Below are positions 42,481 to 64,000 of a stretch of DNA of 64,000 bases, piece after piece. The DNA lies in assembly GCA_963826065.1 (NCBI GenBank), contig CAWGVP010000006.1, forward strand, positions 128,336 through 192,335, written 5' to 3'. Position numbers and translations under genes: made by a program. Source of the stretch: an uncultured Gemmatimonadales bacterium (lineage in GTDB: Bacteria; Gemmatimonadota; Gemmatimonadetes; Gemmatimonadales; GWC2-71-9). The notes under the pieces are model-generated. The model searched no databases. It saw only the letters and a list, made by a program, of their open reading frames with translations, and had not been told where the DNA came from. Position 1 is the stretch's first letter; the number at the start of each line of letters is the position of its first letter.

Positions 42481-45400
42481 ATGATTCCCTTACAGTCGCT
42501 GTCGCCCAAAGTGCTTGCCGCGACCACGCTCCTGCTGCTCGCGGACGTGGCGCCCGAGCTCCGGGTGCTGCGCGTCGTGCCGGCGGCAGACGCCGCGCCG
42601 ACCGCGACCGTCACGATCACGTTCGATCGTCCAGTCGCGGGCTCGCTCGACCGCACCGTGGACGCTCGTGAGATCTTCAGCATCGCGCCCGCCGTCGCCG
42701 GCCACGTGGACTGGCGCGACCCGGTGACGCTCCGGTTCAGGCCTTCGGCTCCACTGCCCGCCGACCGCTCGTTCACGGTCACGGTGTCCGATCGGTTCGA
42801 GGCCATGGACGGCGGCCGGCTGAACGCCCCGTTCGTCCACTCCTTCCGGGTGCGCGGCTCGCGGGCCCTCGCCGGATATCCGGTTGGCCCGTCCACCAGC
42901 GGACGGCATCTCGCGCCGGACAGCCGGTTCGAGCTGGTGATCGATGCGCCGGTGGACTCGACCGTGGTGAATCGCTCGGTGTACCTGGAGTTCGATCGGA
43001 CGTGCCGGTCACCGGGGGTGGTGCGGCTTCGGCTGGAGGCCGAGCGAGCGCTCGCGGATGACGATCGGTGGGACTTCCGCGAGGCGGGTGGCTGGGACCG
43101 CGATCGCGCGTCCGATCCGCTGCGACGGGTGCTGCGGCTGGCGCCGCGAACGCCGCTCCCCCGCGGATGCCGCGGGCATCTGGTCGTCCCGGCCTCGTTC
43201 GACGAGCACGGCCGGTCGCAGCCTCAGCGCTGGGCGCTCTCCACCTACGGCGACTTCCGCGTGGTCCGCGCCCGGTGCGGCTGGGGCGGGACCACCTGTC
43301 CGACCGGTCCGCTCGTGGTCCACTTCAGTACGCCGGTGCGCGGCGCCGACGTGCTGCGGGGCCTGTCGATCCGCCCCGCCGCCGCGTTCTCACTCACCGA
43401 CACTGCCGACGTCCGCGACGAGTGGGTGCTGCAGACCGAACTGAAGCCCAGAACCGGATACGCCATCGTGGCCGACCGGTCGCTCACGGACGCCTTCGGC
43501 CAGCGGATGTCCGGGAACCCGGTCGTGACGACGAGCACCACGGGCTACGCGCCGGCGATCGACTATCCGTCGGGCCGCACGCTGGTCGAGCGCCGCGGCA
43601 GCCACACCTTCGGGGTCACCTACGTGAACGTGGACACGCTCGAGGTCCTCGTCGCCCCGATTCCCGACTCCCTCGAGGCCGCATTCCTCGCCCGCAGCGA
43701 ATGGAGCTGGCGCGAACGGTGGCCCTCGATCTTCGCCCGCGCCGAGCCCAGGCGGATCGCGGTGCGCGGCGATCGCGATCGGATGCGGGTGTACGGCGTT
43801 CCCCTGGATCCACCAGCGGGCAAGGGCGGAACCCGCCCGGCGCTCATGGCCGTGCAGGTGACCAGCGGCCGGCTCGACTCGATGAGCCGGGCGTATCGGC
43901 CGATCGCGCTGGTACAGGTCAGCGACCTCGGCGTGCACGCCCGCGTGGGAACGGAGGACGCCGCGGTCTGGGTGACGGGTGCCAACGACGGCCGCCCGCG
44001 CGCCGGCGCATCGGTCACCCTGCATGACGCGAGAGGCCGGATCCTGGCCCGCGCTCGCACCGACACGCTCGGGTTGGCCCGGCTGGCGCCATTCGCACCT
44101 CAGCCCCCGCCGGCCGACACCGCCGCCGATCAGGAGATCCGGTGGTCGGGCTTCCAGGGCTATCTCTCGGTCGTGCTGGGGGACGACCGCGCCGTGCTCG
44201 GCATCAACGACTACGATCCCGACCTGAGCCCATGGCGGTTCAACGTCCAGTCTGCCTGGGGCAGTGACCGGCTTCCTGCCGCCGCGGCGCTGTTCACCGA
44301 GCGCGGCATCTACCGTCCCGGCGAGCCGCTCTTCGCCAAGGCGATCGTGCGCACCGGGCCGCTCGGCTCCCTCCGGCGGCCGAGCGCCGGCGACTCGCTG
44401 CGCTGGGTGTTCCACGATCGCGCGGACGAGAGCGGTGAGTCCGGCGTCCTGCGCGACACCACGGTCGCACTCTCGGCGTTCGGCACCGCCGAGCAGCGCT
44501 TCGAGGTCCCCACCGGTGCGGCGCTCGGCGAGTATCGCATCGTGGCGCACCTCCGCCGGGAGGGGCGCTGGACCGATCTCGGCCTGACTTCGTACCGCGT
44601 GGCCGAGTATCGGCCGCCCGAGTTTCTGGTGGATGTATCCGCCGACAGCGTGGCGCGATTCGCCCAGGACTCCATCAGTGCCGCGGTCGAGGCGCGCTAT
44701 CTCTTCGGCGCCCCGATGGGACGCGCGGCGGTGCGTTGGACCCTGCGTCAGGAGTCGCTGCTCTACGACGGGGTCGAGATTCCCGGCACCGAGGGGTACT
44801 CCATCGGCGACGGGGGTTGGTGGTACGAGGAGCTGTCCGAGGCGCGCGCGCCGGTAGCGATCCCGGCCAGCGGCATCGATACCCTCGACGCGGACGGCAG
44901 GCTCGGCTTGCGGCTCCGCCTCGGCGACACCGAGCGTGGCCGTCCGTCCCGGGCGACGCTCGAGGCGACGGTGACCGACGTGAACCGGCAGACGGTCTCC
45001 GCCGCTTCCTCGTTCATCGTGCACCCCGCCGCCTTCTATCTCGCCGCCAAACCGGAGGGCGAGAGCTGGTTCTGGTCCGCCGGGAAGCCGGCGAGCATCG
45101 GGGTCCTCGCAGTGGGTCCGGACGGACGGCGGGTGACCGGGGTGAGGGTCGAGGGCGCCGTCGTCCGCCGGGAATGGCATCAGGTGCGCCGGGAGCGTGC
45201 CGGGTATGCCGAGCTGGTGGGCGAGTGGGTATCGGATACGGTGGCGCACTGCGCGATCGACAGCGCGGACGAGCCGCGGCCCTGTCGCTTCACGCCGCCT
45301 GCCGGTGGGTCCTATATCGCCGGCTTCCGCGCCCTGGATGCCGCGGGCAGAACCGTGCACACCAGTCTGTACCGTTGGGCGGTCGGCAGCGATTGGGTGC

Positions 45401-48240: not shown

Positions 48241-48251
48241 CGGAACACCGG

Positions 48252-50585
48252 ATGAAGCGGCGCGCGGTCGGCGCGGGCGCTGTCCTGGCGTCGATGATCG
48301 GCGGGGCGGCGCTGTGGGTGGCTCAGCCGTTGCCTGAGGACCTGCTCGAGCCCGCAGGCCGGGTGGTGACCCTGGAGGACCGGTTCGGGCGAGAGCTCCG
48401 CACGACACGGGGGCCGGACGGCAGCCGGGCCGGGTGGCTCCGGCTGGAGGAGATCGACGCCGATGTCATCGCGGCCTTCGTCGCGGTCGAGGACCACCGC
48501 TTCTACCGCCATCGGGGTGTGGATCCGCGATCGGTGGCGCGGGCCGCGTGGGCCAATCTGCGTGCCGGCCGCATCGTGTCGGGCGGCTCGACGATCACGA
48601 TGCAGCTCGCCCGCATGCTGCGCCCGACCCCGCGAACCTGGGTGGGCAAGGCTGGCCAGGCGCTCTGGGCGATCCGGCTGGAGCGACAACTCGGCAAACA
48701 GGCGATTCTCGAGCAGTACCTGAACCGGGTGCCGCTGGGACAGGGTTCGGTCGGCGTGGTGGCGGGGGCGGCACTCTATTTCGGAGCCGGCGCGGGTGAT
48801 CTGAGCCTGGGGCAGGCCGCGGTGCTTGCGGGCATCGCGCGCGCGCCGTCCAGCGACAACCCGCTGGTCGCGCCGGCCCGCACGCGCCGCCGTCGCGACC
48901 AGGCCCTCTCGCGGCTGGCTGAGTTGGGATACGCATCTTCGATCTCCGCGGATCGGGCGGGGGCCGAGCCGCTGCTCCGGCGGCAGCACGCCGCGCCCTT
49001 CCTCGCCCCGCACTTCACCACCCGTATTCTCCATTGGGCGGAGCGCGACGGCCGACCCTCACACGGAACCTGGCGCACCTCGCTCGACCTCGAGCTGCAG
49101 GTCGAGCTGGAGCGGGAGGTGGGACACGCGGTGGAGACCCTCGCCGATCGGGGCGCGCGTCACGCCGCCGCGGTGGTGCTCGACAACCGGAGCGGCGAGA
49201 TCCTCGCCTGGGTGGGGTCACCCGACTTCTGGGCCGACACCGCGGGGCAGGTAGACATGGTGGTGAGCCCGCGACAGCCCGGGTCCGCGCTGAAGCCCTT
49301 CCTGTACGCGCTCGCGTTCGATCGCGGCTGGACTCCCGCATCCATCCTGCCCGACATCGCCCGGGTGTACCAGACCGGCATCGGTCCGTACAGTCCGCGC
49401 AACTACGACCGCCGGTTCCACGGGCCCGTGCGGGCACGCGAGGCGCTCGCCAGCTCCTACAACATTCCCGCCGTGGAGCTGGCGAGCCGCCTGGGGGTCG
49501 GGAGCCTGCTTCAGGTGCTGCGCGCGGCAGGGTTCACCTCGCTTGCCCGGAGTGCGGATCACTACGGTCTCGGTCTCTCCCTCGGGAACGGCGACGTCAG
49601 CCTGCTCGAGCTGGCCAACGGCTTTCGGGGTCTGGTCAACCGTGGCGTGTGGCGCCCCTATACCTGGCGCGCCGGCATGCCTGAGCGCCTTCTGCCATCG
49701 GGCCATCGCTTCGCGAGCGAGCGCTCGGCGGCGCTGGTGCTGGACATCCTGGCCGACCCGGTCGCGCGCATCCCCGGCTTCGGGATCGAGAGCCCGCTCG
49801 ATTTCCCCTTTCCGGTTGCGGCCAAGACCGGCACCAGCCGGCACTTCACCGACAACTGGGCGGTGGGTGCGGCGGGCGGATTCACCGTCGCGGTCTGGGT
49901 GGGAAACTTCAGCGGCCGGCCGATGGACGGTGTGAGCGGTGTCAGCGGTGCGGGCCCGCTGCTCCATCGCGCCGTGCTGGCGACGGCACGGCGCTACCCC
50001 GCGGGCTCGCTGCCCGATCCGCGCGACCACGATGCCGTGGGTGCGAGAATCTGTCGCCTGTCCGGTCTTCGCCCGGGCGCCGAGTGCCCGGCGGGGACGG
50101 AGTGGTTCGCGCCTGGAGACGTCCCCGCGGACACCTGTGACTGGCACGGCGTGGAGGGCGGAGTCACCCTGCCGGTCGAGTATGCCGAGTGGGCCGAGCG
50201 CGCGCAGTTGCCTCGGAGCCGGGGCGGTGTCAGTGTCGGTGTCAGTGTCATCCTGAGCGGAGCGAAGGAGCCGAAGCCCGAGCATGGCCTCCTTCGCTCC
50301 GCTCAGGATGACAACAATGACACCACTCCACCGCGACTGGCCGCCGGTTTCCACATCGTATCGCCGCGCGACGGCGACGTATATCGACTGATGCCCGGCG
50401 TGGACGTACGCTATGCCACCGTGGCACTCCGCGCTGCTGGAGGCCGCGGCGATGGCCGGACCCGCTGGAGCGTGGACGACGTTCCCCACGGCGGAACCCG
50501 GTGGACCCTCGAGCCGGGTCGGCATCGGGTCCGCGCCGTCTCCGCGTCGGGTGACTCCGCCGAGGTCACCGTGCGCGTGGAATGA
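48252..50585 (+). CDS. pbpC: Penicillin-binding protein 1C (bifunctional glycosyltransferase/transpeptidase) carrying an in-frame repeat insertion
   Basis: GT51 motifs are 'EDHRFYRHRGVD' and 'GGSTITMQLAR'. Transpeptidase motifs are 'SALKPF' (SxxK), 'SYN' and 'KTGTS'. A C-terminal PBP1C-type domain follows the insertion. Confidence 0.9.
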   Translation: MKRRAVGAGAVLASMIGGAALWVAQPLPEDLLEPAGRVVTLEDRFGRELRTTRGPDGSRAGWLRLEEIDADVIAAFVAVEDHRFYRHRGVDPRSVARAAWANLRAGRIVSGGSTITMQLARMLRPTPRTWVGKAGQALWAIRLERQLGKQAILEQYLNRVPLGQGSVGVVAGAALYFGAGAGDLSLGQAAVLAGIARAPSSDNPLVAPARTRRRRDQALSRLAELGYASSISADRAGAEPLLRRQHAAPFLAPHFTTRILHWAERDGRPSHGTWRTSLDLELQVELEREVGHAVETLADRGARHAAAVVLDNRSGEILAWVGSPDFWADTAGQVDMVVSPRQPGSALKPFLYALAFDRGWTPASILPDIARVYQTGIGPYSPRNYDRRFHGPVRAREALASSYNIPAVELASRLGVGSLLQVLRAAGFTSLARSADHYGLGLSLGNGDVSLLELANGFRGLVNRGVWRPYTWRAGMPERLLPSGHRFASERSAALVLDILADPVARIPGFGIESPLDFPFPVAAKTGTSRHFTDNWAVGAAGGFTVAVWVGNFSGRPMDGVSGVSGAGPLLHRAVLATARRYPAGSLPDPRDHDAVGARICRLSGLRPGAECPAGTEWFAPGDVPADTCDWHGVEGGVTLPVEYAEWAERAQLPRSRGGVSVGVSVILSGAKEPKPEHGLLRSAQDDNNDTTPPRLAAGFHIVSPRDGDVYRLMPGVDVRYATVALRAAGGRGDGRTRWSVDDVPHGGTRWTLEPGRHRVRAVSASGDSAEVTVRVE
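50247..50312. repeat. Palindromic REP-like element, copy D, inside the pbpC reading frame (66 nt = 22 codons)
   Basis: Arm 50247..50270 (gtcatcctgagcggagcgaaggag) is the exact reverse complement of arm 50289..50312. It is translated as ...VILSGAKEPKPEHGLLRSAQDD.... A 12-bp tandem duplication (ggtgtcagtgtc x2, 50226..50249) precedes it. Confidence 0.9.
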
Positions 50586-53685: not shown

Positions 53686-54609
53686 ATGATCTCATGCGCC
53701 GCCGCGACCGCGGCGGCGCAGAGCGTGTCCCGGCCGGCCGGCGACCTCGCCCAGCGCCTCGCCGGCCTGAGCGCCGTCACCGGGCTCGAGCAACATCTGG
53801 TGGACACGCTCCTTTCCCTGGTTCCGGGATCCCGCAGGGACCGCGCAGGTAATGCCGTGCTCACCCTCGGCTCCGGCCCATCCCGGCGGCTGGCCGTCTG
53901 CCCGCTGGACGAGCCGGGATACGTCGTCGGCGGGGTACGCGGCGACGGGTACCTGACGCTGCGGCGCTCACCCGGGGTCATCTCCCGGATCCGTGATGCT
54001 CAGCTCGAAGGGCAGCGGGTCACTATTAGAACTCGGGAAGGTATCGTCCCGGGCGTCGTGGCCGTGCGCTCGGTCCACCTGACGCGCGGCCGCGACCTGG
54101 CACCATCGCGATTCACCGTAGACAGCGCACTGGTGGATGTGGGGGCCGCGACGGAAGCTGAAGTGGCGTCGCTGGGGATCGGTCCGCTCGCGCCGGTCAC
54201 CCTGCACAAGCGCCCGCAGCGCTACGGCAGGGATCTTCTCGCGGGGCCGATGACCGGCCGCAGGGCCGCCTGCGCGGCGCTGGCGGTCGCGGCAGGCAGG
54301 GCTTTGGCGAAGAAGGTGGTGGTCCCGCGGCGGGAGTCGGTCGTGATCGCGTTCGTGGTGGAGCAGGAGCTCTCGGGTCGGGGGATCGCCACGATCGCCA
54401 ATGCGATGGGACCGTTCTCGGAGACGATCCTGGTGGACGACGCCGATGCCGAGGCGGGGACGGTGGCGGAGCGCTGGCCCGCGCTCGGCCGCGTGGAGGT
54501 GAGACCGCTGCCGGTTCGGTACGCCGGCACACCGGTGGAGACGGTCTCGCTGTCCGAGGCCGATCGGCTCGCGGACGAGCTCGTGGCGTGGATCGAAGGG
54601 TCGCGATGA
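53686..54609 (+). CDS. M42-peptidase-like protein with all metal-ligand positions substituted (probable pseudoenzyme)
   Basis: It appears collinear with the downstream M42 gene (judged by eye, no formal alignment). The catalytic motifs are replaced: 'AHLDEVGF' becomes 'CPLDEPGY', 'FDDRVG' becomes 'MTGRRA', 'REEIGLEG' becomes 'EQELSGRG', and 'YSHSPVE' becomes 'YAGTPVE'. Confidence 0.55.
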   Translation: MISCAAATAAAQSVSRPAGDLAQRLAGLSAVTGLEQHLVDTLLSLVPGSRRDRAGNAVLTLGSGPSRRLAVCPLDEPGYVVGGVRGDGYLTLRRSPGVISRIRDAQLEGQRVTIRTREGIVPGVVAVRSVHLTRGRDLAPSRFTVDSALVDVGAATEAEVASLGIGPLAPVTLHKRPQRYGRDLLAGPMTGRRAACAALAVAAGRALAKKVVVPRRESVVIAFVVEQELSGRGIATIANAMGPFSETILVDDADAEAGTVAERWPALGRVEVRPLPVRYAGTPVETVSLSEADRLADELVAWIEGSR

Positions 54610-55697
54610 GACCGTCGCTCGCCCTGCTGATCTCGGCCCTGGCGTCGCTCTCCGCCAATGCCGCGGTGGCGCAGGACGCCGAGCGGCTGCGGGAGACGGA
54701 GGCGGTGCTCAAGACCCTGGTGGAGAGCTACGGCGTGTCCGGGTCGGAGGCGCCGGTCCGCGACGCGGTCCGCCGGCTGCTGCCCACGTGGGCAAGGCCG
54801 GAGGTGGATTCGGCGGGCAACCTGTGGGTGACGGTGGGCCGCGGGGAGCCGACCGTGGTTCTGGTCGCCCACCTGGACGAAGTGGGCTTCGAGGTGACCG
54901 CGGTCGGCGAGGACGGCCTGCTCGAGGTCAGATCGCGGGGCGGAATCTTTCCGTCCCTCTGGGCCGGACGCCCGGCACTCGTGCATGGCGGCCGCGCACC
55001 CGTCCCCGGGGTCTTCCAGCCGCTGGATTCCGCGGCCGCGGCGTCTGGTGAGGCCGAGCCTCTGCATGTGGACGTCGGCATGAGCAGCCGGCGGCAGGTC
55101 GAGGCGCTGGGGATCAGGACCGGACACACCGTCACCAGTCCGAAGGAGTACGTGCGTCTCGCCGGGCACCGGGCCACGGCCCGCTCGTTCGACGACCGGG
55201 TGGGGTCCGCCGCGCAGGTGATGGCGCTCCGGCGGCTCGATCGCGGGAAGCTGCGCCACACGGTGATCTTCCTCTGGAGCGTGCGGGAGGAGATCGGCCT
55301 GGAGGGTGCGCGAGCGGCGGCGCGGGCACTGGGTCTGCGGGCGGCCCGGGTGCACGCCGTCGATACCTTCGTCTCCGCCGACTCACCGCTGGAGCTCCGG
55401 AATTTCGCGGTCGCGCCGTTGGGAAAGGGACCGGTGGCCCGGGCGCTGGACAACAGCGCCGTCACGCCGCCGCCGCTGCTCGATTCGCTGGTCGCGCTCG
55501 CGAGCGCGCGGGGGATCCCGCTCCAGGTGGGTGCCACCAACGGCGGCAACGACGGGTCCGCCTTCGCCGAGTTCGGGGTGCCCGACGTGCCGCTCGCCTG
55601 GCCGCTGCGCTATTCCCATTCGCCGGTGGAGGTGGCGGACCTGCGGGACGTGGCGCACCTCGCGGAGCTGGTGCAGGCGGTGGCGGAGGATTGGTAG
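54606..55697 (+). CDS. M42-family metallopeptidase (glutamyl aminopeptidase/FrvX-like) with signal peptide
   Basis: The ATG at 54606 overlaps the upstream stop (ATGA). Signal peptide is MRPSLALLISALASLSANAAVAQ. Intact motifs are 'VAHLDEVGF', 'FDDRVG', 'VREEIGLEGA' and 'RYSHSPVE'. Confidence 0.8.
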   Translation: MRPSLALLISALASLSANAAVAQDAERLRETEAVLKTLVESYGVSGSEAPVRDAVRRLLPTWARPEVDSAGNLWVTVGRGEPTVVLVAHLDEVGFEVTAVGEDGLLEVRSRGGIFPSLWAGRPALVHGGRAPVPGVFQPLDSAAAASGEAEPLHVDVGMSSRRQVEALGIRTGHTVTSPKEYVRLAGHRATARSFDDRVGSAAQVMALRRLDRGKLRHTVIFLWSVREEIGLEGARAAARALGLRAARVHAVDTFVSADSPLELRNFAVAPLGKGPVARALDNSAVTPPPLLDSLVALASARGIPLQVGATNGGNDGSAFAEFGVPDVPLAWPLRYSHSPVEVADLRDVAHLAELVQAVAEDW

Positions 55698-55749
55698 TCG
55701 GCCGGTCCCGTGGGTCCCCTTGTGCTGTCCCTCCATTATCGCATATTCA

Positions 55750-55760
55750 TGCATTATGCA
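55750..55760. promoter_or_regulatory. AT-rich palindrome TGCATtATGCA overlapping the argG start codon (candidate operator)
   Basis: An 11-bp perfect palindrome sits within the only AT-rich patch (about 55736-55760, cattatcgcatattcatgcattatgca) between the M42 gene and argG. The GCAT/ATGC half-sites are repeated upstream. Confidence 0.25.
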
Positions 55761-56943
55761 GACTGGCACTATCGCCCTCGCCTTCTCCGGCGGGCTCGAC
55801 ACCTCGTATTGCGTCCCCCGGCTCGCCGAAGACGGCTGGACCGTGCACACGGTCTACGTGGACACCGGCGGCTCCAGCGCCGCCGACCGGGCCGCCATCC
55901 GGCGCCAGGCCGACGCGGTCGGCGCCGTGGCGCACCACGAGGTGGACGCCCGGGAGCGGGTCTACGACCGGTTCGTGCGCTACCTCATCCAGGGCAATGT
56001 CCTGCGGGGTGAGGTCTATCCGCTGAGCGTGGCCGCGGAGCGGACCCAGCAGGCCCTGTCGGTCGTGGACGTGGCCCGCAGCATCGGGGCGGCGGCCGTG
56101 GCCCACGGCTCCACCGGCGCGGGCAACGACCAGGTGCGCTTCGACGTCGCGCTCCGGGTGCTGGCCCCCGAGCTGGCGATCGTGACGCCGATTCGCGACG
56201 CGGGCATCAGAAGGGAGCAGGCCATCGCCTATCTCGAGGCGCGCGCCCTGCCGGTACCGTCGCGCGCCGGCAGCTACAGCATCAACCGGGGGCTGTGGGG
56301 GACGACGTGGGGCGGGGGATGGACCCACGACACCTGGGCCGGTCCGCCGGCGGAGCTGGTCGATCCGCCGGCCGGCGCCCCCGCGCCGGGGGAGATCGTC
56401 CTCGGCTGGGAGCGCGGTCTCCCGGTGTCGCTCGACGGGGTGCCCCTGGGCGGGCCCGCCCTGGTGGCGCGCCTGGGCGAGACGGCGGAAGCGTACGGGA
56501 TCGGGCGCGGCATCCATCTCGGTGAGACCGCGCTGGGCATCAAGGGGCGGATCGGATTCGAGGCCGGCGCCGCCCTGATTCTCATCGCTGCCCACCGCGA
56601 GCTGGAGAAGCTGGTGCTCACCAAATGGCAGACTTTCTGGAAGGACCAGCTCGGCCGATTCTACGGCGATCGGCTCCACGAGGGTCACTACTTCGACCCC
56701 GCCCTCCGCGATATCGAGGCGCTGATCACCAGCTCGCAGGCGCGCGTCACCGGCGACACCCGCATCCAGCTCGGCCCCGGCCGGTTCCAGGTGGTGGGGA
56801 CCCGCAGTCCCCACTCCATGATGGATACGTCCATCGCGACCTATGGGGAGGAGAATCGGCTCTGGACCGGCGACGAAGCGCGGGCCTTCGCCCGCGTGTC
56901 GGCCGTGCCGTCCCTGCTGGCGGCGCGGGCCTCGGCGGAGTGA
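55756..56943 (+). CDS. argG: Argininosuccinate synthase
   Basis: The ATG at 55756 gives MQTGTIALAFSGGLDTSYC..., the ATP-PPase 'SGGLDTS' motif. Also 'GSTGAGNDQVRF'. 395 aa. Confidence 0.95.
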   Translation: MQTGTIALAFSGGLDTSYCVPRLAEDGWTVHTVYVDTGGSSAADRAAIRRQADAVGAVAHHEVDARERVYDRFVRYLIQGNVLRGEVYPLSVAAERTQQALSVVDVARSIGAAAVAHGSTGAGNDQVRFDVALRVLAPELAIVTPIRDAGIRREQAIAYLEARALPVPSRAGSYSINRGLWGTTWGGGWTHDTWAGPPAELVDPPAGAPAPGEIVLGWERGLPVSLDGVPLGGPALVARLGETAEAYGIGRGIHLGETALGIKGRIGFEAGAALILIAAHRELEKLVLTKWQTFWKDQLGRFYGDRLHEGHYFDPALRDIEALITSSQARVTGDTRIQLGPGRFQVVGTRSPHSMMDTSIATYGEENRLWTGDEARAFARVSAVPSLLAARASAE

Positions 56944-56974
56944 CCCCACCCATGCAACCCCGAGGAACACCACC

Positions 56975-58069
56975 ATGGTCGTGACCACCCGAGTCCGGCT
57001 CGATCGGATCGCCAGCGCCACCCGCAACGCCGCGCTCTCCCCCGAGGTGATCGTGGGCGACGAGATCGTGGCGGCGGAGGGTTACGTCCTGGCGGTGCGG
57101 ATCCTGGAGGACAAGTCCACCTACAACACGGTGGAGGACGTCACCGGCCGGATGCTGTCCCTCCGCGGAGGCGACGTCCTGGCCGGTGTGCTCGGCACCC
57201 GCCGGGCGCTCCGCGGCTACGCCGGAGTGGTGCCCTCCCACCTGGCCGTGGGCGACACGATCGAGGTCCTCAACCTGGGCGGCATTCTCGGTCGCTGCAC
57301 CTCGGTCAACCCCGACATCGGCCCGCCGTTCAAGGCGGAAGTACTCGGGGCCATCCTCGCCTTTCCCGAGCTGGGCGACAGGGTCGGCCGGCCGGCTCAC
57401 ATCCGCGACCGTGCGGTGCCGCCCTCCGACGTGCTGGAGAGCCGGGTGCCGGTGGTGTACATCGCCGGCACCTGCATGAACGCCGGTAAGACGGTTGCCG
57501 CCACCGAGCTGGTGCGCGGCCTCGCGCGCGGCGGCCTCCGGGTGGCCGCGGCGAAGCTCACCGGCGTGTCGCTCATGCGGGACGCGCTCTCGATGCTCGA
57601 CGCGGGCGCCGTCGCGGCACTCACCTTCAACGACGTCGGCATCGCCAGCACCCATCCGGGCGTCACGGTTTCCACAGCCAAGGGCATCTTCAACCGTCTC
57701 GCCGCCTCCAAGCCCGACGTGATCGTGGCCGAGCTGGGCGACGGCATCCTCGGCGAGTACGGGGTGCAGGACATCCTGCGCGATGCCGAGCTGACCTCGG
57801 TCGGTGCCGCGTACGTGATGGCCGCGCCCGATCCCGTGGCCTGCTGGGGCGCGGTCGAGCTGATGCAGCGGGAGTTCGCGCTGCCCGTCACCGCGATCAC
57901 CGGGCCGGCCACCGACAACGAGGTGGGGCAGGTCTACATCACCGGCGGCCTCGGTCTCCCGGCGCACAACGCCCGGCGCGATGCGGCCGGCCTGGTGGGC
58001 GCCGTCCGTGCCTCGATGACCGAGTGGGCGGAAAAGGCCGAGGGCCTCGCCGCCGTCGCGGTCTCGTGA
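56975..58069 (+). CDS. Uncharacterised P-loop (SIMIBI/BioD-CobQ-DUF1611-like) protein encoded inside the arg operon
   Basis: 364 aa. Walker A-like 'AGTCMNAGKT' at aa 163-172 (about nt 57461-57490). Walker-B-like 'DVIVAELGDG' at aa 248-257. The stop overlaps the argC start (GTGA). GC3-rich coding signal throughout. Confidence 0.6.
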   Translation: MVVTTRVRLDRIASATRNAALSPEVIVGDEIVAAEGYVLAVRILEDKSTYNTVEDVTGRMLSLRGGDVLAGVLGTRRALRGYAGVVPSHLAVGDTIEVLNLGGILGRCTSVNPDIGPPFKAEVLGAILAFPELGDRVGRPAHIRDRAVPPSDVLESRVPVVYIAGTCMNAGKTVAATELVRGLARGGLRVAAAKLTGVSLMRDALSMLDAGAVAALTFNDVGIASTHPGVTVSTAKGIFNRLAASKPDVIVAELGDGILGEYGVQDILRDAELTSVGAAYVMAAPDPVACWGAVELMQREFALPVTAITGPATDNEVGQVYITGGLGLPAHNARRDAAGLVGAVRASMTEWAEKAEGLAAVAVS

Positions 58070-59115
58070 ACGTCGCCGTGGTGGGGGCCGCCGGATATGC
58101 CGGCGGGGAGCTGCTTCGTCTCCTGTATCAGCATCCCGAAGTGAGGGAGTGCGTCGCCACGAGCCGGAGTCGCGGCGGCGCGGCGGTGGCCGACGCCCAC
58201 CCGGCGCTGGCCGCCCTCTCCGACGCGCGATTTTCCAGCGCCACGCCCGGCGAGATCGCTCGCGGCCGCGACGTCGTCTTCCTCTGCCTGGAGCACGGCG
58301 AATCGTCGCGCGTCGCGGCCGAGGTGTTCGCCGCGAAGCCGGGACTGGTGGTGGACCTCGCCGCCGACTTCCGGGTACGCGACCGCACCCTCTACGAGCG
58401 GTACTACGGTCCCCACCCGTCGCCCGAGCTGCTGCCCCGCTTCTGCTACGCCCTGGCCGACGTGCTCGGCGCGGGCCTCCGCGGAGCCGGGGCGCTGGCC
58501 GCGCCGGGCTGCTTCGCCACCGCGGCGCAGCTCGCGCTCTATCCCCTGGCGCGGGCCGGGCTCGACCTGTCGCCCTCGATCTTCGCGGTGACCGGGTCCA
58601 GCGGCGCCGGCGTGCAGCCGAAGCCCACCACCCATCATCCCATGCGGGCGCACAACCTCTTCGCCTACTCGGTGCTGGGGCACCGGCACGAGGCGGAGGT
58701 GCTCCAGTCCTGGCGCCAGTGGGTGGGCCGTCCCGGCGCGACCGCCCGGCTGCTGACTCACTCGGGCCCGTTCGTTCGCGGCATCTATCTCACCCTCCAC
58801 GCCTATCTGCCTCGCGACTCCGCGATCGGCACCGGCGACCTCGGCACCGTCGCGGCCGGCTGGTTCCGGGAGGCCTACGCGGGGAGGCCGTTCGTCAGGG
58901 TGCTGGATGCGCCGCCCGAGCTCACCCACGCGGTGGGAACCAACTATGCCCTCATCCACGCGGCGGAGAGCGCAGACGGCAGGGAGGTGCAGGTGACCGT
59001 GGCGATCGACAATCTGGTGAAGGGCGCCGGCGGGCAGGCGATCCAGGCGATGAACCTGGCGCTGGGCATCGAGGAGACGGCGGGGCTGAGAGCGGGGGGG
59101 ATTTTTCCATGTTGA
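58066..59115 (+). CDS. argC: N-acetyl-gamma-glutamyl-phosphate reductase
   Basis: The GTG at 58066 gives VNVAVVGAAGYAGGELLRLL.... The active-site context is 'APGCFATAAQLAL'. 349 aa. Confidence 0.9.
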   Translation: MNVAVVGAAGYAGGELLRLLYQHPEVRECVATSRSRGGAAVADAHPALAALSDARFSSATPGEIARGRDVVFLCLEHGESSRVAAEVFAAKPGLVVDLAADFRVRDRTLYERYYGPHPSPELLPRFCYALADVLGAGLRGAGALAAPGCFATAAQLALYPLARAGLDLSPSIFAVTGSSGAGVQPKPTTHHPMRAHNLFAYSVLGHRHEAEVLQSWRQWVGRPGATARLLTHSGPFVRGIYLTLHAYLPRDSAIGTGDLGTVAAGWFREAYAGRPFVRVLDAPPELTHAVGTNYALIHAAESADGREVQVTVAIDNLVKGAGGQAIQAMNLALGIEETAGLRAGGIFPC

Positions 59116-60360
59116 GAGCGGGAGCGAAAGGGGCGGACGGGCGGAAGGGCGGAAAGGCGGAAGGCTCCGCTGAGGTTTCGATTGCCGGCGCATCGGCGAA
59201 GCCTTCCGCCTTTCCGCCCTTCCGCCCGTCCGCCCTTCTTCCGGTGTACTCCCAGTTTCCCATCCGCCCGGTCCGCGGGCATGGTTCCTGGCTGGTGGAC
59301 GAACAGGGCAACGAGTGGCTCGACGCGTACGGCGGTCACGCGGTGGCGGCGACGGGCCATTCCCATCCCGACGTCGTCGGCGCCATCGCGGCGCAGGCCG
59401 GCGCGCTGCTCTTCTACTCGACCGCGGTGCCGCATCCGCTTCGGGAGCGGCTCGCCGAGCGGCTGGCCGCGCTCTGCCCCGAGCCCTTGGCCCGGGTCTT
59501 CTTCTGCAACTCCGGCGCGGAGGCGAACGAGAACGCGCTGCACCTGGCCCGCAGGGCGACCGGCCGCACCACGGTCGTATCGCTGCGCGGCGGATGGCAC
59601 GGCCGGACGGTCGGCACGCTCGCGTGCACCGACGGTCCGCGCTACGAGGAGGCGGCTGCGCGGAGCGGCATTCCTCTCTCCCGCAAGGTGCCGGTGGACG
59701 ATGTGGCCGCCCTCGAGGCCGCGGTGGACGAGAGCGTCGCCGCGGTCATCCTGGAGCCGGTGCAGGGTCTGTCCGGCGCGCGGGACTCTCAGCGCCGACT
59801 TCCTGCGCGCCGCCCGCCGGGTCTGCCACCGGCACGGCGCCACCCTGATCTTCGACGAGGTGCAGTGCGGGGTGGGGCGCTGCGGTGCCTTCAGCGCGGC
59901 GGAGGCCGTTGGCGTCGTGCCCGACGTGCTGACGCTGGCCAAGGGGCTCGCGTCGGGCCTGCCCATCGGGGCCGTGATCGCGACGCCGGCGGTGACCGCC
60001 TCCATCGGCACCGGCGACCTCGGCAGCACCTTCGGGGGCGGCCCGGTGCCCTGTGCGGCCGCGCTCGCCACGCTCGACGTGATCGAGCGCGACGGCTTGA
60101 TCGAGAACGCCGTTCGGGTCGGCGACCGGTTGAGCCGCGGAGCTCGCGCCCTCGGCGTCCGGCACGTCAGCGGGCGCGGGCTCCTGCTCGGTCTCCACCT
60201 CGACCGGCCGGCGGTCGAGGTGCAGCGCGCCCTCTTCGGGCGCCGGATCATCACCGGCACCGCGTCGGACCCGGGGGTGCTGCGGCTGATGCCGCCACTG
60301 TCCTTCTCCGCCAACGAGGCCGACCTGGTGCTGGCGGGACTCAAGGAGGTGCTCGCGTGA
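59109..60360 (+). CDS. argD: Acetylornithine/succinylornithine aminotransferase (class III), disrupted by an apparent +1 frameshift near 59781-59785
   Basis: The N-terminal part (frame of the ATG at 59109) reads '...LLPVYSQFPIRPVRGHGSWLVDEQG...FFCNSGAEANE...AVILEPVQGLSGAR'. The C-terminal part is in the +1 frame (ORF 59182..60360) and reads 'TLSADFLRAARRVCHRHGATLIFDEVQCG...TLAKGLASGLPIGA' (PLP lysine). The true start is uncertain: ATG 59109 or GTG 59244. Confidence 0.8.
59131..59235. repeat. Perfect 36-bp inverted repeat (G/A-rich arm gggcggacgggcggaagggcggaaaggcggaaggct) with 33-nt loop at the argC/argD junction
   Basis: Arm 59131..59166 is the exact reverse complement of arm 59200..59235. 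The sequence is unrelated to the GTCATCCTGAGCG family. It is a single copy in this window. Total length is 105 nt = 35 codons, open in the argD frame. Confidence 0.9.
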
Positions 60361-61379
60361 CCAAGCGCGACTTCCTCGCGCTCGAGGACTGGTCCACCGA
60401 AGAGGTGGATGCCCTGCTGGCCCTGGCGAATCGGGTCAAGCGCGGCGAGATCAGCGGCGGACTGGAGCGGAAGGTGCTGGCCATGGTCTTCATGGATCCG
60501 AGCCTGCGCACCCGCACCAGCTTCGAGACGGCCATGTTCCTCCACGGCGGCCACGCGGTGGTGCTGGAGCCGGGCCGGGGAAGCTGGGCGCTGGAGACCG
60601 AGACCGGTGCCGTGATGGACCGCGACAGCGTCGAGCACGTCGTGGACGCGGCGCGGGTGCTCGGTCGCTACGCGGACGCGCTCGGCGTGCGGTCCTTCCC
60701 CCGGGGGTCCGACTGGTCCGTCGCCCGCCAGGATCCGGTCCTTCGGAGCTTCGCCCGCCACTGTGAGAAGCCGGTGATCAACCTGGAGTCGGCGCGTCGC
60801 CACCCCTGCCAGGCGCTCGCCGACGCCATGACCCTCCGCGAACGTCTGGGGGAGACCTCGGGCAAGCGCTTCGTCCTCACCTGGGCGTGGCATCCCAAGG
60901 CGCTCCCGACCGCGGTGCCGGCCAGCGCGGCGCTCGCGGCGGCCCGGCTCGGCATGGAGATCGTGATCGCGCGGCCGCCCGGATACGAGCTCGACCCGGA
61001 GGACACGGCGCTGATCCGCCGGATCGCGCAGCAGTCGGGAGGGGAGTTCGTCCACATCATCGAAGACCCCGACGAGGCGACGGTCGGTGCCGACGCGGTG
61101 TACGTGAAGTCGTGGGGCTCGGTGAAGCTCTACGGCGATCCGAAGGAGGAGGCCGCCCAGCGCGCGGCGCTGCGCGATTGGCGGCTCACGCCCGGGCGGC
61201 TGAAGTCCACCCGGGGCGGCAAGGGAATCGTGATGCACTGCCTCCCGGTGCGCCGCAACGTGGAGATCGACGACGCCGTGCTGGACGGGCCCAACTCGGT
61301 CGTGGTGGACCAGGCGGAGAACCGGCTGCACGCGCAGCGGGCGCTGCTGCTGGAGCTGCTTGGCACGGGCGGCAGATGA
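60357..61379 (+). CDS. argF': N-acyl-L-ornithine carbamoyltransferase (AOTCase/SOTCase family, argF')
   Basis: The GTG at 60357 overlaps the argD stop (GTGA) and is preceded by AAGGAGG. Contains 'SLRTRTSFE', 'RHPCQALAD', 'WAWHPKALPTAVP' and 'HCLPVRRN'. These motifs are as I recall them for the acetyl/succinyl-ornithine transcarbamylases. The canonical OTCase ornithine-loop motif (DxxxSMG) was not seen. Confidence 0.8.
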   Translation: MTKRDFLALEDWSTEEVDALLALANRVKRGEISGGLERKVLAMVFMDPSLRTRTSFETAMFLHGGHAVVLEPGRGSWALETETGAVMDRDSVEHVVDAARVLGRYADALGVRSFPRGSDWSVARQDPVLRSFARHCEKPVINLESARRHPCQALADAMTLRERLGETSGKRFVLTWAWHPKALPTAVPASAALAAARLGMEIVIARPPGYELDPEDTALIRRIAQQSGGEFVHIIEDPDEATVGADAVYVKSWGSVKLYGDPKEEAAQRAALRDWRLTPGRLKSTRGGKGIVMHCLPVRRNVEIDDAVLDGPNSVVVDQAENRLHAQRALLLELLGTGGR

Positions 61380-62311
61380 GCATCGACACCACCCGCGGCA
61401 TTGCCGGCCTCAAGGGCGCGCTGCGCTACGTGCGCGCATACCGCGACCAGGTCTTCGTGGTCAAGTTGGGCGGCGAGGTACTGGCCCAGCCGGAGGTGCT
61501 GGAGCAGGTGACCCAGCAGCTCGCGCTCCTGTCGTCGCTCAGCATCCGCCTGGTGGTGGTCCACGGCGGAGGTCCCCAGGCCACCGCCCTGAGTCGCAGG
61601 CTCGGCGCGGAGCCCCGCATGGTCGCGGGCCGCCGTGTCACCGACGACGCCGCGCTCGAGGTGGCGAAGATGGTGTACGCCGGGCAGCTCAACGTCGATT
61701 TGCTCGCGGCGCTCAGGGCACACCGGGTGCAGGCGGTGGGGCTGAGCGGGGTGGACGCCGATCTCATCACGGCGCATCGCCGGCCACCGGTGCAGGTGGT
61801 GGACGACGCGGGCGGGACGGTCAAGGTGGACTACGGCCACGTGGGCGACGTGGATCGGGTGGACCCCCGGATCCTCGGCACGCTGGTGGAGGCGCGGTTC
61901 GTGCCGGTGGTGGCGAGCCTCGCGGGCGGAGAGGACGGCGAGGTCTTCAACGTCAACGCCGACACCGTCGCCGAGTCGATCGCCGTCGCCATGCGGGCGC
62001 AGAAGCTGATCTTCCTCACCGGCGCGCCGGGCGTGCTCCGCGACCGGAACGACCCCTCCACCCTCGTCACCTTCGCGGACCCCGACGACCTCGCGGGCCT
62101 CATGGCCAGCGGTGTGCTGAGCGGTGGGATGCGGCCCAAGGTCGAAGCGTGCATCCGCGCGGCCACCGGGGGTGTCGAGCGCACCCATATCATCGACGGT
62201 CGCGCGCCCGATGCGCTCCTCCTCGAGGTCTTCACCGGCGCCGGCTGCGGGACGATGATCGTCGGGCGCAAGGAGAAGGCGACGTACCTCGGGGTGGATC
62301 TTGCAGGATGA
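61376..62311 (+). CDS. argB: Acetylglutamate kinase (long, N-terminal-helix form)
   Basis: The ATG at 61376 overlaps the argF' stop (ATGA). Contains 'VVKLGGEVL', 'VVVHGGGPQ' and 'NVNADTVA'. 311 aa. Confidence 0.9.
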   Translation: MSIDTTRGIAGLKGALRYVRAYRDQVFVVKLGGEVLAQPEVLEQVTQQLALLSSLSIRLVVVHGGGPQATALSRRLGAEPRMVAGRRVTDDAALEVAKMVYAGQLNVDLLAALRAHRVQAVGLSGVDADLITAHRRPPVQVVDDAGGTVKVDYGHVGDVDRVDPRILGTLVEARFVPVVASLAGGEDGEVFNVNADTVAESIAVAMRAQKLIFLTGAPGVLRDRNDPSTLVTFADPDDLAGLMASGVLSGGMRPKVEACIRAATGGVERTHIIDGRAPDALLLEVFTGAGCGTMIVGRKEKATYLGVDLAG

Positions 62312-63377
62312 GTTGACGCTGCTGGAGGAGCTGGTCGCCATCCCGTCGGTGAGCGGAGAGGAGGCGGCCGTGGCCGCCTTCGTGGAGGGACGGGCCCGCG
62401 GATGGGGCCTCGACACCGTGCGGGACGACACCTCGGTGCGGATCGAGGTGCCTGCCGGCCGCCCGGGACCGACACTCGCCCTCGTCTCCCACCTCGACGT
62501 CGTCCCGCCCGGTGCCGGCTGGACCCGCGATCCCTTCACCCCCACCATCGAGGGCGACCGGCTCTACGGCCGGGGCTCGGGAGACGCCAAGGCCTCGGTG
62601 GCCGCGATGGTGACCGCCGCGAAGGACCTCGCCGAGCGGGCGGCGCTCGAATGCGGCCGGCTGCTCGTCATCCTCGGCTACGGGGAGGAAACCAAGCACA
62701 CGACGATGGAGCGCGCCGTGGATCGGGCCGGTCCGATCGATGCGGCGGTCGTCGGTGAGCCCACCAACCTCCAGATCGCCACGGCGCAGCGCGGGCTCAT
62801 GATGGTGGACCTCGTCGCCCGGGGCGATCAGCGCCATGCCGGGTACGCCGCCGCCGACGGCGAGTTCGTCAACGCCGTGCTGGTGCTCGCGCGGGATCTC
62901 CTCCGGCTGGAGGAGCTGTTCCAGAGCCGCGCGCACCCGGTGCTCGGCCGCACCACGGCGACAGCCACGATGCTCGATGCCGGGGTGAGCCGGAACGTCA
63001 CCCCACCCGTCGCCACCGCGATCCTCGACGTCCGCAGCACGCCGGATTGGACCCACGAGGAGATCGCGGACCTGCTCCGCCAGCAACTCGATTCCGAAGT
63101 GGTGGTCACCTCTCGCCGCCTGGTGCCGTGCGAGACGCCGGCCGGCTCCCGCCTGCTGGCCGCGGCCCGCCGAGCTCGCCCGGACGCGGCGCAGTTCGGG
63201 AGCCCGACCTGCTCCGACTGGGTATTCCTCCGCCACGCGGACGCGATCAAGGCCGGGCCCGGTACCAGCCGTCGCTCGCACACCCCGGACGAGTACGTGG
63301 ACCTTCCCGAGGTCACCGCGGCGCGAGGATTCTATGCCGGTGTCGCCCGCGAATACCTGACTCGGCCCGAGACATGA
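62301..63377 (+). CDS. argE: M20-family deacylase (ArgE/DapE-like; acyl-citrulline/acyl-ornithine deacylase by context)
   Basis: Contains 'LVSHLDVVPPG', 'GRGSGDAKA' and 'GYGEE'. The TTG start at 62301 overlaps the argB end by 11 nt. An alternative TTG lies at 62313. Confidence 0.75.
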   Translation: MQDELTLLEELVAIPSVSGEEAAVAAFVEGRARGWGLDTVRDDTSVRIEVPAGRPGPTLALVSHLDVVPPGAGWTRDPFTPTIEGDRLYGRGSGDAKASVAAMVTAAKDLAERAALECGRLLVILGYGEETKHTTMERAVDRAGPIDAAVVGEPTNLQIATAQRGLMMVDLVARGDQRHAGYAAADGEFVNAVLVLARDLLRLEELFQSRAHPVLGRTTATATMLDAGVSRNVTPPVATAILDVRSTPDWTHEEIADLLRQQLDSEVVVTSRRLVPCETPAGSRLLAAARRARPDAAQFGSPTCSDWVFLRHADAIKAGPGTSRRSHTPDEYVDLPEVTAARGFYAGVAREYLTRPET

Positions 63378-64000
63378 AGCCCAGGACGCTGTGGGGCTCG
63401 GGAGCCGGACTCGACCGGCGGCTGCTGGAGCACACTGCGGCCGACGACCGTGCCTGGGATGCTCGCCTCCTGCGCTGGGACGTGCTGGGCAGCCTGGGGC
63501 ACATCGAAGGTCTGCGCGCCTCCGGCCTGCTCGGAGTCCGCGATCACGCGCGCCTCCGCCAGGGTCTGCGTCAGGCGTTGGCCGCGGTGGATCGCGGGCG
63601 GCTGGAGCTGCGCCCCGACCAGGAGGACGTGCACACCGCGATCGAGGAGTGGCTGACCCGACGGCTGCCGGGACTGGGCGAGCGGCTGCACACCGGCCGG
63701 TCGCGCAACGATCAGGTAGCCTGTGATCTCCGGCTCTATCTCAAGGACCGGCTGCTGGCGCTCCACGCCGACGCGCTCGAGCTGACCGGGGGGCTGCTCG
63801 CCTTCGCCGGTCGGCACCGGCAGGTACTCTGGCCGGGCTACACCCATCAGCGGCGGGCGATGCCCTCGTCGGTCGGGCTGTGGGCGGGTGCGCTCGCGGA
63901 AGGACTCCTCGATACCATCGAGGCGCTGGATCAGCTCTGGACTCGGGTGGACCGCTCGCCGCTCGGCAGCGCGGCGGGGTACGGCGTGCCGCTGCCGCTC
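63374..64000 (+). CDS. argH: Argininosuccinate lyase (5' part; continues beyond the window)
   Basis: The ATG at 63374 overlaps the argE stop (ATGA). My own translation gives MKPRTLWGSGAGLD...ERLHTGRSRNDQVACDLRLYLKD...WPGYTHQRRAMP, which are ASL signatures. It is absent from the ORF track because there is no stop inside the window. Confidence 0.9.
   Translation, partial: MKPRTLWGSGAGLDRRLLEHTAADDRAWDARLLRWDVLGSLGHIEGLRASGLLGVRDHARLRQGLRQALAAVDRGRLELRPDQEDVHTAIEEWLTRRLPGLGERLHTGRSRNDQVACDLRLYLKDRLLALHADALELTGGLLAFAGRHRQVLWPGYTHQRRAMPSSVGLWAGALAEGLLDTIEALDQLWTRVDRSPLGSAAGYGVPLPL

Follow-up and report, generated by a model that had tools for sequence, protein, structure and literature searches.

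How does a bacterium begin the synthesis of arginine when its arginine operon encodes all steps from N-acylglutamate to arginine and no gene for an N-acylglutamate synthase is found there? The question is raised by the window considered here, a stretch of 64,000 nucleotides from an uncultured Gemmatimonadales bacterium (contig CAWGVP010000006.1 of assembly GCA_963826065.1, positions 128,336 to 192,335). On its plus strand, from position 55756 to the window end, lies the operon argG-X-argC-argD-argF'-argB-argE-argH, in which X (56975-58069) encodes an uncharacterized two-domain protein of 364 amino acids. A preliminary description made from the nucleotide sequence had presented X as a candidate for the missing enzyme; the position and length of X and the gene order given there are confirmed by the open reading frame and by the NCBIfam assignments of the neighbors. 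We propose, with moderate confidence, that X opens arginine biosynthesis in this organism as an N-succinyl-L-glutamate synthase, most likely with succinyl-CoA as acyl donor. The candidate was recognized from its open reading frame and gene junctions, from sub-threshold matches to P-loop proteins, from an AlphaFold2 model and from the arginine context. The gene is real and the hypothesis is well supported by this context; the function is a prediction.

The operon and its missing synthase

The window has a G+C content of about 70%, and its genes were called with a codon-usage model. X starts with an ATG at 56975, which is 31 nt past the stop codon of argG (56941-56943), the gap that had been described, and 8 nt past a Shine-Dalgarno-like motif, GAGGA (56962-56966). 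Its TGA stop codon (58067-58069) overlaps the GTG start codon of argC (GTGA). A longer open reading frame from 56843 was ruled out as the X gene because the homologues align from residue 1 of the protein that starts with ATG 56975.

Upstream of X, argG (55756-56943) encodes an argininosuccinate synthase of 395 amino acids (NF003385, NF001770 and TIGR00032, E 5e-92 to 7e-76). Downstream of X follow argC (58066-59115; TIGR01850, 308.6 bits, cut-off 233.6) and argD for the N-acylornithine aminotransferase (59235-60360), which is read in two frames; the first half aligns with positions 20-199 of argD models and the second with positions 201-392. Then come argF' for a knotted N-acylornithine carbamoyltransferase (60357-61379; NF003384, 422 bits, cut-off 288) and argB for an N-acylglutamate kinase of 311 amino acids (61376-62311; TIGR00761, 225 bits, cut-off 151). 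This ArgB stands alone, a fused acyltransferase domain being absent according to NCBIfam. The next gene, argE (62301-63377), encodes an M20 deacylase of the ArgE/DapE family (TIGR01910, E 1e-39, under the curated cut-off) and is presumed from its place in the operon to provide the N-acylcitrulline hydrolase. Its stop codon is overlapped by the ATG of the last gene (63374-64000), which runs off the window end; we read it from its translation as the N-terminus of argininosuccinate lyase (argH), with which a Lyase_1/ASL_C2 gene at the equivalent position of a Myxococcota locus (L064) agrees.

That the operon has no argA, argJ or GNAT gene, as had been claimed, is borne out: ArgA, ArgJ, S-NAGS and C-NAGS were not detected in the operon or among the scanned genes of the window. 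The scan of the window, in which no GNAT or ArgJ family turned up, left aside about a dozen genes that by eye resemble those of a cytochrome oxidase, an efflux pump, a short-chain dehydrogenase/reductase (SDR), FabI and similar proteins. A crude motif search of the window for GNAT and ArgJ was likewise negative; a self-cleavage motif of the ATML type was found in none of the reading frames. Since the operon encodes the remaining steps, no synthase was found and ArgB is unfused, we propose X as the missing synthase.

Is X regularly found in this company? When one genome per GTDB species was scanned, a relative of X turned up in at least 522 genomes, among them soil Gemmatimonadota, Myxococcota, Acidobacteriota, Planctomycetota and Elusimicrobiota; the counts of gene context refer to the best 80 of these species-representative loci, many of which end at contig ends. 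The 80 loci span at least seven phyla (metagenome-assembled genomes (MAGs) of Gemmatimonadota, Myxococcota, Acidobacteriota, Elusimicrobiota, Planctomycetota, Pseudomonadota and Verrucomicrobiota). In all 80, X has arg genes as neighbors, which answers across phyla the question, left by the preliminary description, of whether orthologues in related genomes are linked to arg genes. The nearest relatives of the window are all Gemmatimonadales MAGs. Directly downstream of X lies argC in 78 loci, argG lies upstream in 73, and argD, argF', argB and argE follow X in 58-67 of the 80, the ArgE-like M20 deacylase being present in 58. The two loci without argC have the orders argG-X (L075) and argG-alpha/beta hydrolase-X (L078); an M20 gene was not found at either locus.

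In four Myxococcota loci X is the first gene of an operon X-argC-(argD)-argB-argE-argG, argD being missing in one of them (L066) and argH following next in another (L064). Because argF' is absent from these operons, X is tied there to the steps that consume N-acylglutamate and not to the carbamoyltransferase as such. The co-occurrence of X with argF', which had been suggested as a test, is seen in the 62 ArgF' genes neighboring X, but not in these four loci.

The acyl group used in the pathway can be predicted from ArgF'. The residues Glu92, Asn185 and Lys302 of N-acetylornithine carbamoyltransferase from X. campestris are replaced in N-succinylornithine carbamoyltransferases by A/S/P/V/Q, P and V/I/E, respectively (PMC4581275). 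In an alignment to the X. campestris enzyme, the ArgF' of the window has Val92, Pro184 and Glu303 (own numbering) at the three positions, and its best match in the Protein Data Bank (PDB) is the engineered E92V mutant 3L06. The triads in the 62 ArgF' beside X are V/P/E (50), A/P/V (4), I/P/E (2), V/P/V (2), S/P/V (2), V/P/I (1) and T/P/E (1); the acetyl-type triad E/N/K occurs in none of the 62. Because these residues are of the succinyl type, the pathway would proceed via N-succinyl intermediates as in Bacteroides. Judged from the sequences, the acyl group is most likely succinyl and not acetyl, and the missing enzyme is probably an N-succinyl-L-glutamate synthase. The preliminary description had left open whether such a non-canonical synthase would form N-acetyl- or N-succinylglutamate; the context supports a synthase and makes succinyl the likeliest prediction, whereas the ArgF' residues speak against acetyl.

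NCBIfam labels the ArgF' of the window 'N-acetylornithine carbamoyltransferase', against its three succinyl-type residues. The automatic annotation of argF' in these phyla is probably wrong with respect to the acyl group.

The idea that X is a synthase is not new; it had already been put forward independently in a 2024-2026 preprint. In the bioRxiv paper 'Novel enzymes for amino acid biosynthesis in diverse bacteria and archaea: GapMind 2026' (10.1101/2024.10.14.618325, version 2026-07-02), the section on this candidate and Appendix 2 predict the same function for the Steroidobacter protein ACG33_RS14135 (UniProt A0A127FCT3). Its host is stated to grow in minimal medium and to have no protein similar to any characterized ArgA, the gaps in its pathway being ArgA and ArgE. 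Homologues of the candidate are described as 'virtually always' located in arg operons and never alongside ArgA homologues, and 90-97% of the adjacent ArgF' as having A, P, S, V, I or T at position 92. By Foldseek the candidate is weakly similar to PDB entry 7XRJ (E 1.4e-7, root-mean-square deviation (rmsd) 5.6 Å). The function is given there as a prediction, with no experiment reported in these parts of the paper. DgcN is called a D-glutamate acetyltransferase in the preprint, and 7XRJ carries the title 'N-acetyltransferase DgcN-25328'; the precedent for acylation of glutamate by such a fold, which the preliminary description had cited, is thus real.

X and the Steroidobacter protein almost certainly belong to the same family, as we infer from matching descriptors. 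Both are hypothetical proteins in arginine operons (argG, argC, argD, argF', argB, argE, argH, argR), both are weakly similar to 7XRJ, and both have neighboring ArgF' proteins whose residue 92 belongs to this same set, in our loci V, A, I, S and T. A homologue search with a proteobacterial member (from L078) gave no Steroidobacter protein among the top 120 matches. In a full-text search of a library of papers none besides GapMind 2026 was found to mention this candidate. The analysis of the window adds to those parts of the preprint that X is built from two domains, that its BioD-like nucleotide motifs are intact and that it has relatives outside arg operons, as described below.

Family, predicted fold and distant relatives of X

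No model of Pfam or NCBIfam matches X at its threshold, and the comparison with these models, which had been proposed as a check, gave no confident match to a characterized family with an unrelated role. The best sub-threshold matches are DUF1611_C, CbiA, MobB, bioD and cobQ, limited in each case to some 40-60 residues around Walker A. The top match in Pfam is DUF1611_C (PF07755; 18.3 bits, cut-off 25, E 0.0017, residues 156-213); a few distant members of the X family score 25-31 bits with this model and thus lie over the threshold. X reaches 13.8 bits with TIGR00347 bioD (cut-off 83.3) and 12 bits with the cobQ models (cut-offs 273-310). PF17396 (DUF1611_N) has no match in X, the DgcN model NF041892 of NCBIfam is absent among its matches at E <= 1, and X matches neither an Acetyltransf/GNAT family in Pfam at E <= 1 nor an ArgJ family in Pfam or NCBIfam. 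A search of the PDB with the single sequence of X gave no match, and a sequence search with a DUF1611-positive member of the family (P0376) brought up no DUF1611 structures.

Among the candidates examined, the X family comprises more than 3,400 clusters at 90% identity (E <= 1e-3) and, with the same E value, 1,427 clusters at 50% identity. These counts, together with a predicted local distance difference test (pLDDT) score of 97 for the AlphaFold2 model, show that X is far beyond a chance open reading frame. All source names in the first homologue search were 'hypothetical protein'; in later searches a few relatives were named 'DUF1611 domain-containing protein' or 'molybdopterin-guanine dinucleotide biosynthesis protein'. 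Conservation was determined from an alignment of 58 full-length, diverse homologues with identities down to 27%. Invariant in this alignment are P87, G171, K172, K194, E253 and D286; near-invariant positions include S14, E54, R76, T173, D203, D220 and G255. In the N-terminal domain G36, G103 and G125 are also family-invariant. A conserved Cys/His metal-binding motif was not found in the family, the invariant residues being in this respect Ser, Arg, Lys, Asp and Glu.

With the 58-member alignment as input, the AlphaFold2 model of X (predicted TM score 0.93) consists of an all-beta domain (residues 1-155; 56975-57439) followed by a Rossmann-like P-loop domain (residues 160-364; 57452-58069). Modeled alone, the N-terminal domain has a pLDDT of 95. 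The preliminary description had recognized no motif in the first 155 or so residues, and we found neither a Pfam match nor, with Foldseek against the PDB including the DUF1611 structures, a fold match for this domain (best E 0.31, TM 0.29). When the whole of X was compared, Foldseek matched only the second domain, namely to BioD, FtsY/Ffh, DgcN (7XRJ), a DUF1611 protein (2OBN), HypB and MeaB, with E values of 2e-6 to 1e-4. BioD was the first of the matches; 7XRJ took rank 13 (E 2.4e-5, rmsd 6.0 Å), and 2OBN_A (E 3.1e-5) had the highest TM score of the list when normalized to the query (0.40). A profile of the C-terminal domain also found BioD first among the PDB sequences, weakly (E 0.026), and matched FtsY and MobB. 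The predicted structure thus agrees with the resemblance to SIMIBI proteins (BioD, CobQ, DUF1611) seen earlier by eye: the C-terminal domain appears to be of the SIMIBI class (signal-recognition/MinD/BioD), for which we name no single nearest neighbor. X qualifies by no threshold as a member of the DUF1611/DgcN family, and judged from its sequence the N-terminal domain is unrelated to DUF1611_N.

The two motifs pointed out in the preliminary description are present. GTCMNAGKT (residues 165-173; 57467-57493) is a Walker A motif or P-loop with the GTxxxxGKT spacing of BioD, with whose P-loop it aligns in the profile alignment. DVIVAELGDG (residues 248-257; 57716-57745) is an hhhhE motif in a Walker-B-like position that contains the invariant Glu253; in the model, residues 249-253 form a beta-strand. 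The invariant Lys194 in AAAKLTG (57554-57556) stands in the profile alignment opposite Lys37 of BioD (in 'AGYKP' of the E. coli and 'AVCKP' of the M. tuberculosis enzyme). We infer that DVIVAELGDG with its E253 is the equivalent of EGAGG in BioD.

Plasmid proteins annotated as DUF1611 were considered as a bridge from X to canonical DUF1611 proteins. This was rejected: the Paracoccus protein is a full-length member of the X family (both domains aligned over 311 columns, with an hhalign probability of 99.9%) and also scores under the Pfam threshold.

Distant relatives with an identity of 25-35% were found by profile searches; they come from Nanohaloarchaea, Aenigmatarchaeota, Patescibacteria, Pyrinomonadaceae, Planctomycetia and Nostocaceae, and also from plasmids of Priestia, Bacillus, Paracoccus and Sulfitobacter. 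Some of them are still in arginine operons. Three loci of the Pyrinomonadaceae type (L083, L086, L088) have the order argR-argG-X-argC-argD, and a locus of a Gottesmanbacteria MAG (GCA_030679255.1; L082, 6552-13833) comprises argG, an open reading frame for 80 amino acids, X, a succinyl-type argF', argH, an ArgE-like M20 gene and a gene for a YgeW-type knotted carbamoyltransferase. On the contig with P0272 the X relative is followed by an ornithine carbamoyltransferase-like gene. An M20 peptidase gene precedes the X relative on a Nostocaceae contig (L084) and on an unclassified metagenome contig (L087).

In Nanohaloarchaea (L081), in Aenigmatarchaeota (L085) and on an unclassified metagenome contig of the same layout (L089), the X relative lies beside two to three RimK-family alpha-L-glutamate-ligase paralogues and beside a C39-like peptidase fused to a mechanosensitive-channel-like region. 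One may speculate that these loci encode a system for an N-acylated glutamyl peptide, similar to the osmolytes NAAG or NAGGN. The Priestia megaterium plasmid NZ_CP085446.1 (L091, 2742-11430) encodes a phosphoenolpyruvate (PEP) mutase, a split thiamine pyrophosphate (TPP)-dependent decarboxylase, two ATP-grasp proteins of the L-amino-acid-ligase type, an M20 peptidase, a carbamoyltransferase and an X-family protein; a Bacillus paranthracis plasmid (L093, 1146-6104) encodes a TauD dioxygenase, a TPP-dependent enzyme, a pyrB-like carbamoyltransferase and an X-family protein. Both are possibly natural-product clusters, phosphonate-type by look, in which the X-family protein would install a transient N-acyl group.

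A gene for an alpha/beta hydrolase lies directly 5' of the X-family gene in the argG-hydrolase-X locus already mentioned (L078, 9028-11041) and in Paracoccus (L090, 3997-5918). Because Steroidobacter lacks ArgE according to the GapMind 2026 section, this hydrolase could be an alternative N-acylcitrulline hydrolase.

Taken by type, the neighbors of the distant relatives are carbamoyltransferases (L082, the P0272 contig, L091, L093), ATP-grasp proteins of the RimK or L-amino-acid-ligase type (L081, L085, L089, L091), alpha/beta hydrolases (L078, L090) and M20 deacylases (L084, L087, L091). Their common thread is that they remove an N-acyl group or use or extend an N-acylated amino acid, which fits what is expected of the neighbors of an amino-acid N-acylating enzyme. 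These contexts are absent from the section and Appendix 2 of GapMind 2026.

Predicted role and competing explanations

As N-succinyl-L-glutamate synthase, X would replace ArgA, ArgJ or the Bacteroidetes GNAT ArgA2 and put the succinyl group onto the alpha-amino group of L-glutamate. ArgB, ArgC and ArgD would then process the protected substrate, ArgF', being of the succinylornithine type, would form N-succinylcitrulline, and the M20 ArgE-like enzyme would strip off the succinyl group. The N-terminal beta domain with Arg76, Ser14 and Glu54 may bind the amino acid, and the BioD/DUF1611-like P-loop domain may bind a phosphate-bearing co-substrate. The latter is most likely succinyl-CoA because of the analogy with DgcN, the only characterized remote relative, and with the displaced GNAT.

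How does X compare with known enzymes? DgcN (PF07755 plus PF17396; 7XRJ, 2OBN) has, like X, a C-terminal SIMIBI P-loop domain and acylates the alpha-amine of glutamate; its acyl donor is acetyl-CoA. Yu and co-workers are said to have reported on DgcN as a D-glutamate N-acetyltransferase in 2023 (ISME J 17:537). In contrast to X, DgcN acts on the D-enantiomer and in a catabolic pathway, and the N-terminal domain of X is all-beta and no DUF1611_N. With BioD and the related amidoligases (CobQ/CbiA and the N-terminal domain of CTP synthase) X has in common the GTxxxxGKT spacing, the lysine after strand 2 (K37 in BioD, K194 in X) and hhhhE-G-x-G. BioD, however, is a single domain with 7,8-diaminopelargonate as substrate, and X is far under the score of the bioD family.

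The same reaction as predicted for X has been assigned to another protein. In Bacteroidetes and Caldithrix a GNAT of the ArgA2/BT3761 type is the assigned N-succinylglutamate synthase, encoded in the same kind of operon with a succinyl-type argF', argG, argC and argD (PMC9026213, PMC5317091). ArgA2 has the GNAT fold, to which X shows no similarity, and X would replace ArgA2 as a non-orthologous enzyme. ArgA, ArgJ, S-NAGS and C-NAGS also protect the alpha-amine of glutamate, the role proposed for X, but with other folds (amino-acid kinase plus GNAT, Ntn-type in ArgJ, or GNAT alone) and by transfer of an acetyl group. ArgX/LysX with LysW achieves the protection of the glutamate amine at the expense of ATP, and in DPANN archaea ligases of the RimK family also adjoin distant relatives of X. 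ArgX, an ATP-grasp enzyme, requires the small carrier LysW; in contrast, the X operon has no LysW-like gene, and its argB, argC, argD and argF' are of the N-acyl type.

If the prediction is true, the first committed step of arginine synthesis in these organisms would be catalyzed by a P-loop protein that has no relationship to any of the N-acylglutamate synthases known so far, and the succinyl-type arginine pathway would extend well past the Bacteroidetes. It would close a gap that, in metabolic reconstructions of phyla whose members are mostly uncultured, recurrently leads to false 'arginine auxotroph' calls. A large family that lacks a Pfam model, with paralogues in natural-product clusters, in DPANN archaea and in organisms of candidate phyla, would gain its first functional clue. 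The window contributes an independent and well-resolved example, with structural and contextual detail that frames two alternatives: succinyl-CoA versus succinate plus ATP, and glutamate versus ornithine as acceptor.

Several observations weigh against a succinyl-CoA-dependent N-succinylglutamate synthase. The similarity of X to DgcN/DUF1611 is remote (18 bits versus 25 in Pfam; Foldseek E about 1e-5) and no better than that to BioD, FtsY and HypB, and the intact Walker A motif, the BioD-type lysine and the acidic motif would equally suit an enzyme that uses ATP. The Gottesmanbacteria locus has no argB, argC or argD within 8 kb; the acceptor may there be ornithine rather than glutamate, as in a salvage route from ornithine that needs N-acylation, or the three genes may lie elsewhere. 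The X relatives in DPANN archaea are without any arg context. Finally, two Acidobacteriota X operons (L083, L086) also carry a GNAT gene. The objection that X coexists in these operons with a GNAT synthase and is therefore something else was rejected as strong evidence, since the two GNATs are mutually unrelated (E 0.35), one of them is PaiA-like and they occupy different slots. It is further weakened by the third locus of this type (L088), which has no GNAT gene, and by the 80 loci, in none of which a homologue occurs.

Could X work with ATP instead of an acyl-CoA? An amidoligase of the BioD/CobQ/CTP-synthase type would phosphorylate succinate or another acid, and the amine of glutamate would attack the acyl-phosphate, so that no CoA thioester is involved. 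We regard this, with low confidence, as the main alternative. BioD is the top PDB match both of whole X by Foldseek and of the C-terminal-domain profile, but all BioD matches are weak (E 0.03 by sequence). The BioD-spaced P-loop with the invariant G171 and K172, the invariant E253 in an hhhhE motif resembling EGAGG and the invariant K194, aligned with Lys37 of BioD, a residue that contacts the gamma-phosphate and the activated carbamate, would fit such an enzyme, yet these motifs do not discriminate, CoA also having an ADP-like moiety. In favor are also the ATP-dependent ligases (RimK and L-amino-acid ligase) that adjoin X relatives, and the succinate released by ArgE, which would be directly reusable. 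Opposed to this, DgcN, the only characterized glutamate-acting enzyme of comparable fold, has been deposited as an N-acetyltransferase, and the displaced analogue ArgA2 is a GNAT and presumably CoA-dependent. An ATP-dependent succinate:L-glutamate ligase would be a third, previously unseen chemistry for the protection of the glutamate amine, beside acyl-CoA transfer and LysW/ATP-grasp ligation. It is just as tentatively conceivable that the paralogues in DPANN archaea, candidate-phyla bacteria and the phosphonate-type clusters of Firmicutes are general 'N-acyl amino acid ligases' that act in concert with M20 deacylases, carbamoyltransferases and ATP-grasp ligases.

A later role of X in the pathway is unlikely. 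X would then either recycle the succinyl group in an ArgJ-like manner from N-succinylcitrulline or N-succinylornithine to glutamate, or acylate ornithine. Both would suit Steroidobacter, which lacks ArgA and ArgE and has X as the only extra gene (section on the candidate in GapMind 2026), the Gottesmanbacteria locus, where X occurs with argF', argE, argG and argH and without argB, argC and argD, and the several distant contexts in which X is directly beside a carbamoyltransferase. However, recycling is unneeded in the 58 of 80 loci, including the window, that have an ArgE-like M20 enzyme; X of Myxococcota is linked to argC, argD and argB in the absence of argF'; argB, argC and argD still require a source of N-acylglutamate; and for a P-loop fold there is no precedent of cofactor-free transacylation. 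We consider it slightly more improbable still that X is non-catalytic, be it an accessory NTPase (for instance one that assembles the dinuclear-metal M20 deacylase or the carbamoyltransferase, or supplies it with metal) or a pathway regulator. HypB and MeaB, both metallochaperones, are among the Foldseek matches and X-family genes repeatedly lie beside M20 enzymes, but two loci (L075, L078) have X and no M20 gene, X is under the curated scores of any such family, and the family has no conserved Cys/His metal motif and, in our reading of its consensus, no apparent G3E-type NKxD. The synthase gap would stay unexplained, also in the prototroph described in the GapMind 2026 section. Very improbable, in our view, is the formation of carbamoyl phosphate by X for the neighboring carbamoyltransferase. 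BioD chemistry is the phosphorylation of a carbamate, and X is repeatedly found beside carbamoyltransferase genes; yet the Myxococcota X operons have no such gene, and the large conserved N-terminal domain suggests a substrate bigger than carbamate. Moreover, the gaps of Steroidobacter are ArgA and ArgE alone, implying that genes for carbamoyl phosphate are present (same section of GapMind 2026). To anything else we attach hardly any probability.

Other features of the operon and the window

The genes of the operon had been described as joined by start/stop overlaps. This applies to X/argC (GTGA) and argE/argH (ATGA); argD probably does not start at the ATGTTGA described for its junction with argC, because a 105-nt hairpin fills the gap between the two genes. 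The hairpin (59131-59235) is a near-perfect inverted repeat of GGCGGAA-like units, in which two arms of 43 nt (95% complementarity) enclose a 19-nt loop; the calculated RNA fold has a free energy of -113.3 kcal/mol (z = -12.5). It is present in a single copy in the window. Related arms are found at the same site in two other loci (L002, L060), whereas in other relatives the gap is short. The hairpin may be an inserted palindromic element, an RNA stabilizer or an attenuator.

The break of argD into two frames is caused by 1 extra nucleotide at 59786 relative to L001, a locus with 93% identity. The insertion site, GGGACTCT, is not a long homopolymer, and argD is in frame at other loci. An assembly error is plausible because split genes are also found at related MAG loci (L049, L060, L079, L004, L032); argD may also be a real pseudogene.

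An AT-rich motif, ATTCATGCATTATGCA (55745-55760), overlaps the start codon of argG. With up to three substitutions it recurs shortly before argG in about 44 related loci, a conservation that Met-Gln start codons explain in part. It is a candidate arginine-repressor operator. An argR gene was not found in the operon of the window; Acidobacteriota relatives have argR directly upstream of argG.

Immediately 5' of the arg operon (53686-55697) lie two tandem genes of the M42 family (glutamyl/lysyl aminopeptidase-like), the first of which is divergent (E 3e-9). Farther upstream (42481-50585) the window encodes a bacterial alpha-2-macroglobulin of 1,919 amino acids followed by a penicillin-binding protein of the PBP1C type, the stop and start codons of the two genes overlapping. 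Alpha-2-macroglobulin and PBP1C are the usual gene pair of periplasmic defense.

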